Of a DNA stretch of 64,000 nucleotides, positions 57,577 to 64,000 are shown one piece after another. Below the pieces are notes generated by a model. That model was not told where the DNA came from. It saw nothing but the letters and a program-made list of their open reading frames with translations, and searched no databases. The position numbers and the translations under genes were made by a program. The stretch comes from Verrucomicrobia bacterium ADurb.Bin018 (GTDB lineage Bacteria; Verrucomicrobiota; Kiritimatiellia; CAIQIC01; Lenti-01): positions 7,262 through 71,261 of the forward strand of contig MWEZ01000001.1 in assembly GCA_002071335.1 (NCBI GenBank), given 5' to 3'. The first letter of the stretch is position 1; each line of letters opens with the position of its first letter.

Positions 57577-58265
57577 CCTCCCTGCGCACAACTGGCTACG
57601 CTTTGTTTACCCTCTTGACTCTGCTCCAACCGCTCTCTGCCGCCCCAAAACTGATCATCAATCCCGAGACGTTCGATTTCGGCGAGGTACCCTCCGGTGA
57701 ATCCGTTCAGGCCACCTTTACCCTCCGCAACGCTGGCGATGAACCCCTCCACATCAACCATGTCCGCACCAGTTGCGGTTGCACCACCTCTCGCCTGGAC
57801 AAACGCGAACTTGCTCCCGGAGAAGAAACCCCGCTAACCGCCACCCTTTCCCTCAGAAACCGCAGCGGCCCCCAACACCAGCGCGTCACCATCGCCTCCA
57901 ACGATCCGGATGCCCCCTCCAGGCAGGCCCACATCCAGGGAACCGCCGTCCAATACCTCACGTTGACCCCCTCCGCCGTCCTACTTTTCTCCGCCCCCCA
58001 AGGGCAATCCATTACCCGAACTCTTTCGCTCCATTCCGAAAATCAGACCCCCTTCCAACTTCTCTCCATCGAGGTCACCCATCCCAATCTTACCGTCGCG
58101 GTCACGCCGGTCTCCCCCAGCTCCTACCGCCTCGCCCTCACCATCCCCGCCACCTGGCCCGCCGGACGCATCAACGAATCCTTACGCATCCACACCGACC
58201 ATCCCCACGCCCCGATGCTGACTTGCTCCATCACCGGAACCCTGCAAACTGGAGACAACCCATGA
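57573..58265 (+). CDS. DUF1573 domain secreted protein
   Basis: FDFGEV...FTLRNAGDEPLHINHVRTSCGCT signature. ATGA overlap with the upstream gene. Confidence 0.65.
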   Translation: MTSLRTTGYALFTLLTLLQPLSAAPKLIINPETFDFGEVPSGESVQATFTLRNAGDEPLHINHVRTSCGCTTSRLDKRELAPGEETPLTATLSLRNRSGPQHQRVTIASNDPDAPSRQAHIQGTAVQYLTLTPSAVLLFSAPQGQSITRTLSLHSENQTPFQLLSIEVTHPNLTVAVTPVSPSSYRLALTIPATWPAGRINESLRIHTDHPHAPMLTCSITGTLQTGDNP

Positions 58266-58480
58266 TCCCGCATCGCCCATGGCCGCTATTATTCCTGACA
58301 CTCGCCCTCTGGACAGGGGCCTCCTCCGCCCAGACTTGGACCACCGTCTGGACGCCCGGCTCCGCCCCCGCCCCCACCCACACGAAGATGGAACAAGAAA
58401 TGGAACCAGAAAAAGACCACAAATCACCGACCAACTGCTATCCCTGCAAGGAGTGGGAAGCCTACGGCGACGGCACCGGC
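58186..58480. repeat. conserved 5' module copy 1 (DUF1573 3' end, ATGA junction, signal peptide, TWTTVWTPGSAPAP...NCYPCKEWEAYGDGTGKWV)
   Basis: Near-identical to 61988-62290 and partly to 63650-63940. GC-rich relative to downstream sequence. Confidence 0.75.
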
Positions 58481-59041
58481 AAGTGGGTGCATTATCCTGA
58501 AGGCACAGAACCCATCCAATGTGATGGCGATGAAACCGATTATGCCTGTAAAGAATGCGACGACAAGGGAGAAGTACGAAATAAAGAGAATGGCACCGAC
58601 TGTTCAACAAGCTCCATCAACGCGGGATGCTGCAAGGATGGCGTATGTACAACAGGACGCCCTCTTACTGATTGGGCGGATTTACAAGCGTGTCCCAAGT
58701 TGATTACACGGCCAGATTATACGCCCGGCCACACAACACCTGCTTGCAGCGTGCCAGACAACTTACAACCGATTGTCGGCAACGACCCCGATCATCCGGG
58801 TGGCTTTGATTTTACAGATTGTTGTATTGAACATGATGTAAATTACAGAACTTGCCAGATGCCCAAGAATGAATGCGACGATGTGCTTGAAGCCTGCTTA
58901 GGTGATGTGTGTAATGCTGCGCCGTGGTGGGATCGTATGAATTGTAGGTTCTATGCCGACGCATATGTTTTGGGAGTGCGGCTTGGTGGGGGCGACGCAT
59001 ATCATGACGCACAGGTCGAAGGATGCTACTGTTGTGATTGA
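58262..59041 (+). CDS. secreted Cys-rich protein with phospholipase A2-like (group III/bee-venom-like) catalytic motif
   Basis: Signal peptide. FTDCCIEHDVNY (CCxxHD) followed by ECDDVLEACL (CDDxxxxCL) and many Cys. Confidence 0.5.
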   Translation: MIPHRPWPLLFLTLALWTGASSAQTWTTVWTPGSAPAPTHTKMEQEMEPEKDHKSPTNCYPCKEWEAYGDGTGKWVHYPEGTEPIQCDGDETDYACKECDDKGEVRNKENGTDCSTSSINAGCCKDGVCTTGRPLTDWADLQACPKLITRPDYTPGHTTPACSVPDNLQPIVGNDPDHPGGFDFTDCCIEHDVNYRTCQMPKNECDDVLEACLGDVCNAAPWWDRMNCRFYADAYVLGVRLGGGDAYHDAQVEGCYCCD

Positions 59042-59070
59042 TATATGCGGGTGTAATCTTGGAGAATGAA

Positions 59071-60423
59071 ATGAAAATACTAGTAATTTTGCTGATCGTC
59101 AGTTTTGCTTGGTTATCACTTGCTCAGGATATGGTTCAGCCTCTTTCTGTGCCCTGGAAAAGAATAATCGTTGATGCCGCTGTCTGGCCTCGAAGCGTTG
59201 TATTAGCTTCGTCGGCTGACAACCATATCTGGCTTGCAATCAATTGGAAGTCAACGGCACGGAATGCAAGAGTTAATAAATGGACTATTCACGACGTCGC
59301 AAATGACGGCTCTATTTCGCAGATTGCGGATAAATCCCAAGCATTTGGAAGCGCTTTTCCGTCAAATATATCGTCGCCACTTACGGATATCGAAGAAATA
59401 TCCGCTATTGCAGGATCCTCTAACGGCAGTTTGACCATGATCGGCCTCGGTCGTAATTATCGGCCCCAGATTATAAATTTAAGTCGAAACGGTCAGATCA
59501 TTTCGAGCGCGGATTTAGAGTCCCAAATAGAAAATCAAGTGGATAATACAAATAGTGTCCAAACGGTGAGTACGCCGTGGTATCCATCTGCATTGTTTGT
59601 CGAAGGTATTCTTCCTGTCCCGGGTGGTAATACTCTAATTTTCGGAAGCATAAAGAAGGAGGTGGCGAATATCGATAACATCAACAACGAAGACGGCTGG
59701 ATGATGATGGTGGATGAAGACTGCAAACGCATATGGGCCCGTGAATACGATTTTGGAACCAACGAGGCAATAGGCTCTGCAACGCTATTGGATAATGGGG
59801 AAATCATTGTATCATTGGCGCTGGGAAAAGAGCCGCGTTTGGATATCATGGGGGGGGCCTCGCAAATATGTATACTTAAATGTACCTATACTGGGGATAT
59901 AATAAACAAAATATCGATGCAGGGTCGCAAAGCAACTGTTCTAAATCTCAAGGGAGGGAATATCGCTGTGCTCTACGATAGGGCACAGGGCTTCGACATA
60001 GATACATGGATCGAAGTACGTAACGCAGAACTTGCTATTTTGTCTGAAAAGCGCATAGAAAACGCCCGGCAACAGACCACGTCAAGCGGTATTGTCCCCA
60101 CGTTAACAAAATTCAATGCTGCCAGATTGGAGTCCGGCGATATATTGACAACCGGCTGGTTGCTTAAAGATGTGCGAGAAAGCGAAAGGATCTGGGACTT
60201 TGCAATGATAATCAATCGGTATAATGAGAATGGTGATAAATGTGGACATTTAGAATACGCCCCGGGCTTCCCACTGCGGCCAGTTCAGATTGCTAGCGTG
60301 CATAATTGGGCATGCTTGTCATGGATTACCGGGATAGCAGACCCTGATACTCCTGAAAAAGATCGCCAGGAGGTAAACATCATAAGAGTTGATATGCACG
60401 ATGGAGGCGAAGATAAGAACTGA
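59071..60423 (+). CDS. hypothetical secreted protein, low-GC (Ile/Asn/Lys-rich)
   Basis: Signal peptide MKILVILLIVSFAWLSLAQD. GGAG RBS. AT-rich codon usage unlike the flanks. Confidence 0.45.
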   Translation: MKILVILLIVSFAWLSLAQDMVQPLSVPWKRIIVDAAVWPRSVVLASSADNHIWLAINWKSTARNARVNKWTIHDVANDGSISQIADKSQAFGSAFPSNISSPLTDIEEISAIAGSSNGSLTMIGLGRNYRPQIINLSRNGQIISSADLESQIENQVDNTNSVQTVSTPWYPSALFVEGILPVPGGNTLIFGSIKKEVANIDNINNEDGWMMMVDEDCKRIWAREYDFGTNEAIGSATLLDNGEIIVSLALGKEPRLDIMGGASQICILKCTYTGDIINKISMQGRKATVLNLKGGNIAVLYDRAQGFDIDTWIEVRNAELAILSEKRIENARQQTTSSGIVPTLTKFNAARLESGDILTTGWLLKDVRESERIWDFAMIINRYNENGDKCGHLEYAPGFPLRPVQIASVHNWACLSWITGIADPDTPEKDRQEVNIIRVDMHDGGEDKN

Positions 60424-62859: not shown

Positions 62860-63626
62860 AACACTACTGCTACTATTCACTAGTGGCGGTTTTCTTGGCC
62901 ACCTCCATCGCTTCTGCCGAAATCCTCATCATACACGGGCGGCTACTTCCGGAAACCGACAGCCGGAGGGGAGAGCAGCTTAAACCAATATCGAGGGGCT
63001 ATGTAAGATATGAAATCATCGAAATCGGCCGTGGCAAGCTTGACTCGGCAATCTCCAATACGAGCAAGAACGAAAACGGGCAGGTTATCTCCACCAACGC
63101 CATACCAATTAGTTTCCTTCTTCGCACGGCGCAGGGGCCTTTGCCCCCCGACGCCATTCTGATTCTGGACAATGGGTTCTGGGAGCAGTTCGTGCCGCAA
63201 CATTCCTATCGGGTGTTGGGCGAAGAATCCTGGCGGGGCATCCTGCCCTATTCTCCCGAGGCGTGGAAGGCCATCCTTGAAAAGAGCAACGTGGAATTGG
63301 CGGAAGTCCCGCCGGCCGACCGACTCACTCGCGACGAAATATATGCGGTGCTGGCAAAATCTCTTGCGGAGAGGGGCATAACGGAGCAAGACATCTATAT
63401 CTGGTTCCTGCGGCGAATCCCATTTCAGTGGGTTGTCAATGCCTGCTTCCTCAAAGACGGCCAGCTTTACGATTACACCGTGACGGTTAACGATCGTGGA
63501 AATATACTCATCGATTACGAGCCAAAGCCCAACCGTTATTACCACGACGGCGAAGGAGTCGCCGCCTTTTTTTCTCGCGAACGTCCCGATTTTAAGCCTT
63601 TACGAAGGCATGAACAACCCGAGTAA
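62850..63626 (+). CDS. hypothetical secreted protein
   Basis: Signal-like MQLKHYCYYSLVAVFLATSIASA. Overlaps the upstream gene by 10 nt. Confidence 0.4.
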   Translation: MQLKHYCYYSLVAVFLATSIASAEILIIHGRLLPETDSRRGEQLKPISRGYVRYEIIEIGRGKLDSAISNTSKNENGQVISTNAIPISFLLRTAQGPLPPDAILILDNGFWEQFVPQHSYRVLGEESWRGILPYSPEAWKAILEKSNVELAEVPPADRLTRDEIYAVLAKSLAERGITEQDIYIWFLRRIPFQWVVNACFLKDGQLYDYTVTVNDRGNILIDYEPKPNRYYHDGEGVAAFFSRERPDFKPLRRHEQPE

Positions 63627-63649
63627 ACCGGCCAAGTCAAAGGTGTGCA

Positions 63650-63940
63650 GCACGTCCCGATTCTGACTTGCTCTATCACCGGAACCCTGCAAACTGGAAA
63701 CAACCCATGATCCCGCACCGCCCATGGCCGCTATTCGCCCTGTCACTCGCCCTCTGGACCGGAGTCTCCTCCGCCCAGACGTGGACCACGGTCTGGACAC
63801 TCGACTCCGCCCCCGCCACAAAAGTGATCGTCAAGGCTGGCAACCACAAATCACCAACCAACTGCTATCCCTGCAAAGAGTGGGAAGACTACGGCGACGG
63901 CACCGGCAAGTGGGTTCTCTATCCTCGTGGTACCACGCCG
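63650..63940. repeat. conserved 5' module copy 3 (shorter DUF1573 remnant, ATGA, signal peptide, conserved N-terminal domain with a substituted middle segment)
   Basis: CCCGATTCTGACTTGCTCTATCACCGGAACCCTGCAAACTGGAAACAACCCATGATCCCGCACCGCCCATGG matches copies 1 and 2. Confidence 0.7.
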
Positions 63941-64000
63941 AATAGATGCGCCGGCGACACCACGGACTACACCTGCAAGGAATGCGACGGCAAGGGAGAA
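63707..64000 (+). CDS. third paralogous secreted Cys-rich protein (partial, runs off window end)
   Basis: Manual translation MIPHRPWPLFALSLALWTGVSSAQTWTTVW...NCYPCKEWEDYGDGTGKWVLYPRGT...DYTCKECDGKGE. Absent from the ORF track because it has no stop codon in the window. Confidence 0.5.
   Translation, partial: MIPHRPWPLFALSLALWTGVSSAQTWTTVWTLDSAPATKVIVKAGNHKSPTNCYPCKEWEDYGDGTGKWVLYPRGTTPNRCAGDTTDYTCKECDGKGE

Follow-up and report, generated by a model that had tools for sequence, protein, structure and literature searches.

A chain of genes at the end of a 64,000-nucleotide (nt) stretch of contig MWEZ01000001.1 from Verrucomicrobia bacterium ADurb.Bin018 (the whole stretch is called the window below) combines a repeated 5' module with different C-terminal domains and matching downstream partner genes. 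We favour the reading, with reasonable but far from full confidence, that we see here the proximal end of a polymorphic toxin-immunity array, lineage-specific and Sec-dependent. From 54884 to 64000 all genes lie on the + strand with short gaps or overlaps: two phospholipase D-like (PLD) genes, a DUF1573 gene, and then three putative toxin genes (T1, T2 and T3) interspersed with candidate immunity (I) genes. Several observations carry this reading: a direct repeat with mapped boundaries, a common gene architecture, a very narrow distribution, co-variation of T and I genes, concerted evolution of the leaders, deletions between related strains with breakpoints in the shared block, and an immunity-type gene left without its toxin gene. 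In what follows, L-numbers designate related loci or contigs and P-numbers homologous proteins.

A shared 5' module with divergent C-terminal domains

A repeat search of the window returned a three-copy direct-repeat family at 58187-58486, 61993-62292 (91%) and 63632-63931. We then set the block boundaries relative to each ATG, using a MAFFT alignment of the three loci and segment identities; the block measures 250-325 nt. Copy 1 (58187..58510, + strand) covers the tail of the DUF1573 gene and T1 from its start through the signal peptide into the N-domain; copy 2 (61993..62316, + strand) consists of a 75-nt non-coding DUF1573 stub and the T2 5' module, and copy 3 (63651..64000, + strand) of a 56-nt DUF1573 stub and the T3 5' module, which runs to the window end. 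Between -150 and -76 the copies are related at random level only (32-47% identity), and from -75 to -57 copies 1 and 2 alone are alike (100%). Every copy pair is 93% identical from -56 to 0 and 87-92% identical from 0 to 100. From 100 to 250, copies 1 and 2 remain 81-91% identical and copy 3, which has an 18-nt deletion in this interval, drops to ~60%; past +250 identity is ~50%, again random level. Each copy contains, in order, the DUF1573 tail (..HTDHPHAPxLTCxITGTLQxGxNP and stop), an ATGA stop/start overlap, a signal peptide common to the copies (M[IT]PHRPWPL..LALWTGxSSA) and the motifs QTWTTVWT and NCYPCKEWExYGDGxGKWV. An intact DUF1573 gene precedes copy 1 only (PF07610 at 57573-58265), the stubs ahead of copies 2 and 3 being intergenic. 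The repeat search and alignment thus bear out what an initial annotation had described from the letters of the sequence: three loci sharing a 5' block made of a DUF1573 tail, the ATGA overlap, a signal peptide and a leader, with the intact gene ahead of the first copy alone.

The module also differs in composition from what follows it. The leaders have a GC content of 0.60-0.61, compared with 0.45-0.53 for the C-terminal parts and the genes in between and 0.63 over window positions 1-54000, which agrees with the GC-rich module and low-GC variable parts noted at the outset; the same fall from leader to C-terminal and immunity parts was found in 6/6 genomes examined. A tblastn search of the whole window gave no leader copies beyond these three. 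The upstream limit of the block, by contrast with the fixed recombination junction that had been suggested, varies widely. In the window it lies at -75 and -56, and across related loci anywhere between -4 and -249, with stubs reaching to -142 and -140 (L002, L021), -54 and -53 (L010), -4 and -14 (L005, L007) and, within L015, -99, -116, -249 and -54. With stubs of anything from 4 to 249 nt, there is no fixed junction. An Rfam scan of 54000-64000 returned no RNA family, which means that the block is no known RNA element. The window also yielded no recombinase, no attC-like site and no structured RNA, and matches in a promoter and terminator scan did not exceed shuffled expectation.

Downstream of the module, the three T genes diverge. 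T1 (58262..59041, + strand) encodes 259 amino acids (aa) with a signal peptide, a constant Cys-rich N-domain and a prokaryotic phospholipase A2 (PLA2)-like C-terminal domain at residues 174-241, which scores 31.8 bits with Pfam PF09056 against a gathering cut-off of 29.4. Its CCIEHDVNY motif lies at 58820-58846, and CC..HD..Y..C is invariant in 6 homologues. By profile and by its CxxHDxxY dyad the domain is a prokaryotic PLA2, as first proposed, with predicted activity. In T2 (62068..62859, + strand; 263 aa) the signal peptide is followed by a constant N-domain that has an internal deletion and then by a novel C-terminal domain, here called type B, with the motif C-x3-HEQYH-x7-CPPC (HEQYH at 62572-62586). 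Of T3 the window holds the first 98 codons (63707..64000, + strand), comprising the signal peptide and constant N-domain, and the C-terminal domain lies past base 64000. In L004, which is syntenic and 96% identical, the T3 counterpart runs into a type-C domain followed by a 362-aa gene, so that the T3 C-terminal domain is probably of type C. What had been taken in copy 3 for a domain resembling that of copy 1 yet distinct from it is, beyond codon 75, the second half of the constant N-domain (..TDYTCKECDGKGE).

Across the family this N-domain spans ~75-125 aa with the pattern QTWTTVWTP..NCYPCKEWE.YGDG.GKWV..CKECDG.G..CC..G.C, and in the type-A model it forms two CxxC knuckles on beta-hairpins (predicted local distance difference test, pLDDT, 86-92). 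One and the same leader is joined to at least five C-terminal types, namely PLA2 (two subtypes), A, B, C with variants, and others, in proteins that are all small (230-390 aa). Type A is ~250 aa long, carries the motif C-x3-HE-x2-H-x2-Q and falls into subtypes A, A2 and A3; type B has HEQYH and type C HEETH, and P0025 and P0030 represent at least two further types. The leader search in other genomes that the initial annotation had called for has found the same leader on several C-terminal types.

How unrelated these domains are depends on the pair compared. In hhalign, types B and C are homologous (probability 98.6%), type A reaches 13-29% with B or C, and PLA2 stays below 6% with all others and at 0.3% with type B. 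The complete divergence initially claimed past the shared part therefore stands for T1 and T2 and fails for types B and C. The HExxH motif noted in copy 2 is present, but only as a motif: Glu stands in place of the first His in P0011 and P0026, and no Pfam or NCBIfam peptidase family matched the HExxH types. Family searches of the C-terminal domains thus identified the PLA2 of T1 and left types A and B without a family: Pfam, NCBIfam and PADLOC scans of both types and of all downstream proteins gave weak HEAT matches only. PDB sequence-profile searches with the type-A and leader alignments yielded chance matches, Foldseek found no match for the novel domains, and the type-B structure model, which is of low confidence (pLDDT 62), gave generic helical matches only.

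Partner genes and recombination at the 5' module

We compared the products of the genes downstream of the T genes by all-against-all BLAST. The partner family tracks the C-terminal type one-to-one, over 7 subtypes and more than 10 loci. Type A is followed by HEAT proteins of 264-269 aa, types A2 and A3 by HEAT-like proteins of 298 aa, type B by a protein of 258-274 aa, type C by one of 360-374 aa, and a type-C variant by one of 248 aa; the corresponding lengths are 446-450 aa for PLA2-alpha and 395-397 aa for PLA2-beta. All partner proteins carry signal peptides or lipobox-like sequences. This co-variation agrees with the early suggestion that the neighbouring small genes are immunity candidates, and the downstream genes are likely to encode immunity proteins, their protective function being predicted.

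In the window, T1 is followed by a gene for a 450-aa exported protein (59071..60423, + strand) with an N-terminal signal peptide, the candidate immunity protein of the PLA2-alpha type. Along its whole length it shares 34% identity (E=2e-95) with the 446-aa product of the gene after P0005 on L018, and P0005 is the closest PLA2 relative of T1. A proposed homology with the 395-aa protein of L010 was rejected after BLAST gave no similarity, the true relative being the 446-aa protein of L018; in Pfam, NCBIfam and PADLOC the 450-aa protein matched no family. The candidate type-B immunity gene (62850..63626, + strand) encodes an exported 258-aa protein and overlaps the T2 stop by 10 nt. Its product is 55% identical to the type-B partners in L008 and L015, and 27-35% identical to type-C partners.

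A further partner-type gene at 61107..61883 (+ strand) encodes a HEAT-repeat, lipoprotein-like protein of 258 aa with a weak Pfam HEAT_2 match. It is 54% identical to the type-A partner of L007 and 33-37% identical to those of L005, L015 and L002. As it belongs to the type-A partner family, yet the window contains no type-A toxin gene, we consider it an orphan immunity gene. The converse loss is seen in L002, a strain of the window species: there the type-A toxin gene carries a TAT-to-TAA nonsense codon inside the invariant NCYPC (121-145) and its HEAT partner is intact. The orphan HEAT gene and the nonsense toxin are hallmarks of toxin-immunity turnover.

We next measured leader identity, here from Met to the first Cys. 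It is 73-100% inside one genome and at most 68% across genomes. The window copies share 73-98%, T1, T2 and T3 of L010 76-93%, and in L006 and L008, which belong to one metagenome-assembled genome (MAG), the leaders are 100% identical although type C is attached to one of them and type B to the other. The C-terminal domains cluster the other way, by type over genomes, at 69-84% identity (type B 72% between the window and L008, type C 69%, A2 80-84%). Synonymous divergence (dS) follows the same division. Between leader copies of one genome it is 0.04-0.33, whereas for orthologous C-terminal and immunity parts of different species it is saturated, from 0.9 to more than 1.7. Between the window species and L015, dS amounts to 0.88 for DUF1573 and 1.68 for the type-B immunity gene, and is saturated for the type-B C-terminal domain. 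Leader dS far below ortholog dS points to gene conversion of the leaders. By the same contrast, the type-B cassette is older than the species split, the leader has been homogenised since then within each genome, and ordinary old paralogues are ruled out; the prediction that the 5' blocks are more alike than the rest of the genes thus holds.

Recombinant arrangements were found in other assemblies, all of them short-read metagenome assemblies. L017, which comes from another sample, corresponds to L015 with 7.6 kb removed; the overlap of the two alignments is precisely the 273 nt of shared stub and leader, and the deletion puts type B directly after DUF1573. L011 likewise lacks 2.2 kb of L010, the crossover falling in the 440-nt 5' region common to T2 and T3, and L025 has a sixth cassette at the place where L015 has only a 75-nt DUF1573 fragment. 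Exchange within the block is visible as well. The window species has near-identical strains in which P0002 (type A) and P0003 (type C) begin with one and the same 105-aa N-part. In P0003 the 5' block resembles window copy 1 up to GKWV and copy 3 afterwards, and the copy 1 leader of L001 holds patches like copies 2 and 3. We discarded a candidate deletion between copies 1 and 2 in L004, where the DUF1573-to-type-B junction is a 100-N scaffold gap. With leaders grouping by genome and breakpoints falling inside the shared block, the idea of a constant 5' end that anchors recombination is upheld.

The operon head and the distribution of the family

Upstream of T1 the operon is conserved. PLD1 (54884..56800, + strand), the first gene of the operon and present upstream of every T1 locus, encodes an exported protein with three PLD-like (Nuc/cardiolipin-synthase-like) domains (Pfam PLDc_2, E=8.3e-66, 3 stretches). 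PLD2 (56797..57576, + strand), whose start overlaps the PLD1 stop, encodes an exported protein with a single such domain (PLDc_2, E=5e-21; 259 aa in the gene call of L001). The best NCBIfam similarities of the PLD proteins are to DrmC, NucT and Cls, every one below cut-off. Both PLD genes stand upstream of every array and are retained even in L018, where DUF1573 is absent.

The DUF1573 gene (57573..58265, + strand) encodes a 230-aa protein (PF07610, 86 bits, E=1.5e-24) and its stop overlaps the T1 start in ATGA. The protein has an immunoglobulin-like (Ig-like) fold and a type-I-like signal peptide, with no lipobox Cys, and it scores 70.5 bits, below cut-off, with the NCBIfam OS_HP2 (seleno)protein. 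An SCGC motif at residues 67-70 is kept in 7/8 orthologues. DUF1573 has been listed among selenoprotein families with a UGC motif (PMC9312934, PMC13188914). Because its CGC corresponds to the UGC of these selenoprotein relatives, redox activity is implied, and the SCGC motif is probably redox-active. The motif is of interest in that the translationally coupled downstream proteins are Cys-rich. Among the papers searched, none connected DUF1573 with toxins.

Within the 5' coding end of PLD1, Tandem Repeats Finder (TRF) detected a perfect octanucleotide tandem repeat, (GGCATCTC)x7, at 54897..54952 (+ strand). Copy number is 7 in the window, 4 in L001 (99.6% identical) and at least 12 in L004, and related 8-mers occupy the same position in three other species (x7 in L006, x6 in L007, x3 in L012-14). 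In the window the sole in-frame start for a signal-peptide-bearing PLD1, a TTG at 54884, lies upstream of the repeat. In L007 and L012 the start is an ATG just 5' of the repeat, and the homologous window ATG (54888) is out of frame at n=7. Such features are the signature of a phase-variable contingency locus, placed here at the operon head, and the repeat may switch the whole PLD-DUF1573-toxin operon by slipped-strand phase variation.

The family is rare. A word-indexed search gave 17 homologues, all from metagenomes, with a common N-terminus and different C-termini. The leader profile matched 21 clusters among 1.84 billion representatives, all of them from Verrucomicrobiota or Kiritimatiellia metagenome bins, and a scan of 185,579 species genomes yielded 5 loci, in MAGs that bear the labels Verrucomicrobiota, Kiritimatiellia and Opitutia. 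A scan of Joint Genome Institute (JGI) metagenomes added 5 short relatives on contigs from activated sludge or wastewater. L009 and L026-L028, considered as family members, were dropped as 30-residue chance matches, and tblastn of T1 against plasmids and of T2 against phages gave no match. L005, L006 and L007, which bear Kiritimatiellia or Opitutia labels, show ~78% nucleotide identity and synteny with window 54000-58500 over more than 3.6 kb. The bin labels of these three loci are probably inconsistent, and one family-level lineage is likely.

The array occupies a conserved chromosomal position, with ABC-transporter and MiaB-like genes on one side and core genes on the other. In L012-L014, which represent one species, the PLD-PLD-DUF1573-T(PLA2)-I operon stands alone, and other species have 2-5 extra cassettes. 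The fullest example, L015, is a 71.6-kb NCBI contig with no Ns, on which five T-I pairs come after DUF1573 and a 75-nt DUF1573 fragment closes the array. The distant contig L018 reads PLD-PLD-PLA2-446aa with no DUF1573, and its PLA2 protein is without the QTWTTVWTP leader; it is one case in which DUF1573 and the leader are jointly missing.

Several further features accompany the arrays. A small membrane or exported protein of 170-177 aa is encoded in the window between the PLA2-alpha partner and the orphan HEAT gene (start 60501 or 60522, end 61034, + strand). A 99% identical copy lies in L004 (9105-9749), fused directly after a degenerate leader remnant, and the other loci contain no homologues. 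Mobile genes were seen at array ends: an IS30-like gene in L002 (4264-5313), IS66 and DruA-like genes in L016 (56-2364) and an IS200/IS605 Y1 transposase gene in L018 (4101-5135). Between the last immunity gene of L002 and its insertion sequence there is a 46-nt fragment (4188-4233) that matches window 54678-54723, upstream of PLD1, at 93% identity.

Interpretation and relation to known systems

In the toxin-immunity array that we propose, PLD1-PLD2-DUF1573-T1-I1 would be fixed in the chromosome, with more complete T-I cassettes downstream. Each T protein would consist of a cleavable signal peptide, a constant N-domain rich in disulfides or zinc knuckles and a variable C-terminal effector, and would leave the cytoplasm via Sec. 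The constant N-domain would then serve a common step, be it folding, export or anchoring, in which DUF1573 could possibly take part. The C-terminal domains would attack the envelope, with phospholipid as the substrate of PLA2, and the exported partner proteins would neutralise the effector in the producer's periplasm. The 5' module would run from the last 4-249 nt of DUF1573 through start codon and signal peptide into the N-domain, and gene conversion would keep it near-identical among the paralogues of one genome. Homologous recombination in it would delete, add and re-order cassettes and so alter the effector adjoining DUF1573. The cassettes are probably deployed in parallel.

Several points weigh against this scheme. 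Toxicity, immunity, secretion and antibacterial targets are all properties that we infer from sequence, and so is an action of DUF1573 on the constant N-domain, where it might be a periplasmic chaperone, of thiol-redox or Ig-like kind, or else a partner in export. Since every cassette is a complete gene, swapping into an expression site is unnecessary. The scheme names no route by which T proteins would cross the outer membrane, and it gives the conserved PLD genes no evident role. Finally, repeats of 250-440 nt can mislead the assemblers of the short reads behind the recombinants.

These points leave room for other explanations. The completeness of every cassette, which makes co-expression possible, would fit a parallel battery of secreted lipolytic or proteolytic enzymes, used for nutrient scavenging or against eukaryotic or prey membranes and not in competition between bacteria, with an N-domain for anchoring or substrate binding and with partners that act as inhibitors or chaperones protecting the producer during export. 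A lipid-degradation theme runs through the operon (two exported PLD-like proteins and the ancestral PLA2 effector), and Amoebophilus effectors with a common N-domain are deployed in parallel (Zhang et al.). Such a battery would not, however, be expected to retain the orphan immunity-type gene at 61107-61883 without a toxin, to vary in cassette content among strains, or to keep the partner gene in L002 next to a toxin broken by a nonsense codon; low-GC mobile cassettes, taken together with these turnover traits, are typical of antagonism rather than metabolism. We hold this explanation to be unlikely.

The variable stub lengths (4-249 nt) with no specific site, the lack of any recombinase, attC-like site or structured RNA among the features found in the window, and the sporadic mobile-element genes confined to array ends (IS30 in L002, IS66 in L016, Y1 transposase in L018) are what one would see if the cassettes were ordinary tandem paralogues, their 5' likeness a passive by-product of duplication and gene conversion and the stub a chance duplication break. 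The C-terminal and immunity parts nevertheless come from unrelated families and differ in composition, and were therefore acquired, not duplicated; leaders specific to different genomes carry the same C-terminal types; and the breakpoints of strain differences lie in the shared block, which is thus the operative recombination substrate whatever its origin. We judge passive duplication to be quite improbable. As for the repeat or the strain rearrangements being assembly artefacts, the L001 contig does stop inside copy 3, L004 has N gaps at two repeats and L017 is of low coverage. Yet the identical three-copy structure appears in the window, L001 and L022, which are independent samples, L002, L003, L021 and L023 mutually agree, L015 carries five cassettes on its 71.6-kb contig without Ns, and the same layout is found across six species. 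An artefact is therefore very hard to credit.

The toxin-immunity reading also has precedents. Polymorphic toxins are defined by a conserved N-terminal trafficking region, variable C-terminal domains and a downstream immunity gene (Zhang et al. 2012, PMC3482391; Jamet & Nassif 2015). Here, correspondingly, we find a constant N-terminal region, C-termini that vary between paralogues and strains, and a downstream gene specific to the C-terminal type. There is also recombination with extra C-terminal/immunity cassettes, seen in short-read data and involving full-length cassettes rather than truncated orphans. The closest analogue of the array, though not a homologue, is the Neisseria MafA/MafB/MafI system. 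Maf toxins are Sec-dependent, have lineage-specific constant N-domains and are encoded with a conserved upstream partner gene, as in MafA/MafB (PMC3482391 section 37); this upstream partner, MafA, was later shown to be a secretion component. In both cases a signal peptide and constant N-domain precede a polymorphic C-terminal toxin, predicted here, with the immunity gene directly downstream. Both also have a conserved, non-polymorphic exported partner gene directly upstream of the full-length toxin, and several cassettes per island in one narrow clade (PMC3482391; PMC4287609; PMC7738311). The differences are equally plain. Pfam scans of T1, T2, T3, P0002 and P0003 gave no MafB-N/DUF1020 match. 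The upstream partner is an Ig-like DUF1573 protein with CGC and no lipobox instead of the MafA outer-membrane lipoprotein. No cassette has lost its start codon, signal peptide or N-domain, and each keeps part of the upstream gene as well, whereas Maf carries 5'-truncated mafB-CT orphans. The effectors, finally, are PLA2 and novel Cys-rich HExxH-motif domains, in contrast to the Maf nucleases. Exported immunity proteins imply periplasmic or membrane targets in the present case.

Other systems are more distant. With Rhs and CdiA the array shares a constant homology anchor, unrelated C-terminal and immunity modules of lower GC, retained orphan immunity genes and strain cassette turnover via homologous recombination. 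Pfam nevertheless finds no RHS/YD, FHA or two-partner secretion (TPS) domains such as those of Rhs and contact-dependent inhibition (CDI) proteins. The T proteins are small and Sec-exported, their downstream copies are complete genes and not promoterless fragments, and the shared block measures just ~250-450 nt and reaches into the neighbouring gene. Unlike pilE/pilS, the copies are complete open reading frames with their own start and partner gene, there are no silent truncated donors, and gene conversion hits the constant part, not the variable part. As each copy has its own ATG, signal peptide and full N-domain, the Rhs/CDI orphan and pilS-type silent-copy models raised in the initial annotation do not apply. 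The Amoebophilus APD1/APD2 and Microscilla-N families (Zhang et al. 2012, PMC3482391) resemble the T proteins in having a signal peptide, a lineage-specific N-domain, many effector fusions and probably parallel deployment; but these families are dispersed, often lipobox-anchored and aimed at a eukaryotic host, those of Amoebophilus lacking cognate immunity genes, whereas here a tandem array has one-to-one downstream partners. At the level of single domains, T1 resembles PF09056/Tox-PLA2 (Zhang et al. 2012, PMC3482391) in scoring above the Pfam cut-off and keeping CC-x2-HD-x2-Y, and differs in its low identity, its fusion to a family-specific N-domain and its activity being predicted. Zincin metallopeptidases combine an HExxH helix with a third zinc ligand and a fold of their own; the motif is present in T2 (HEQYH) and in type A (HE..H..Q). 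The view that no described system is of this kind therefore holds as far as the literature search gave no link between DUF1573 and toxins, but the logic has a precedent in MafA/MafB (PMC3482391).

A more specific proposal, which we put forward tentatively and regard as rather doubtful, is that small disulfide-rich effectors in bacteria of the Planctomycetes-Verrucomicrobia-Chlamydiae (PVC) group mature or are exported by a dedicated two-partner route, formed by DUF1573 and the invariant mature N-terminus (QTWTTVWTP and the CxxC-rich domain), the whole operon perhaps being phase-variable via the octanucleotide repeat. If true, this route would be a functional analogue of MafA/MafB whose basis is an Ig-like protein carrying a redox-active CGC, the counterpart of UGC in selenoprotein relatives. 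Selection for partner recognition would then act beside gene conversion to preserve the identity of the 5' module, and any C-terminal/immunity cassette that recombines behind the module would become exportable.

As a polymorphic toxin-immunity array, the region would extend the polymorphic-toxin principle to barely studied activated-sludge Verrucomicrobiota and Kiritimatiellia, with new parts: a constant N-domain, at least two effector superfamilies (type A; types B/C) and several exported immunity families. Systems of the Maf sort, with lineage-specific N-domains, were predicted by Zhang et al. 2012 to turn out more widespread (PMC3482391), and the array would be a clean new example. It also offers a natural experiment, in which T/I co-variation, the dS-quantified evolution of a recombination anchor and strain pairs one recombination event apart can be followed together. 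For DUF1573, a large family of unknown function, it would provide a first testable role, as the partner of Cys-rich secreted effectors.

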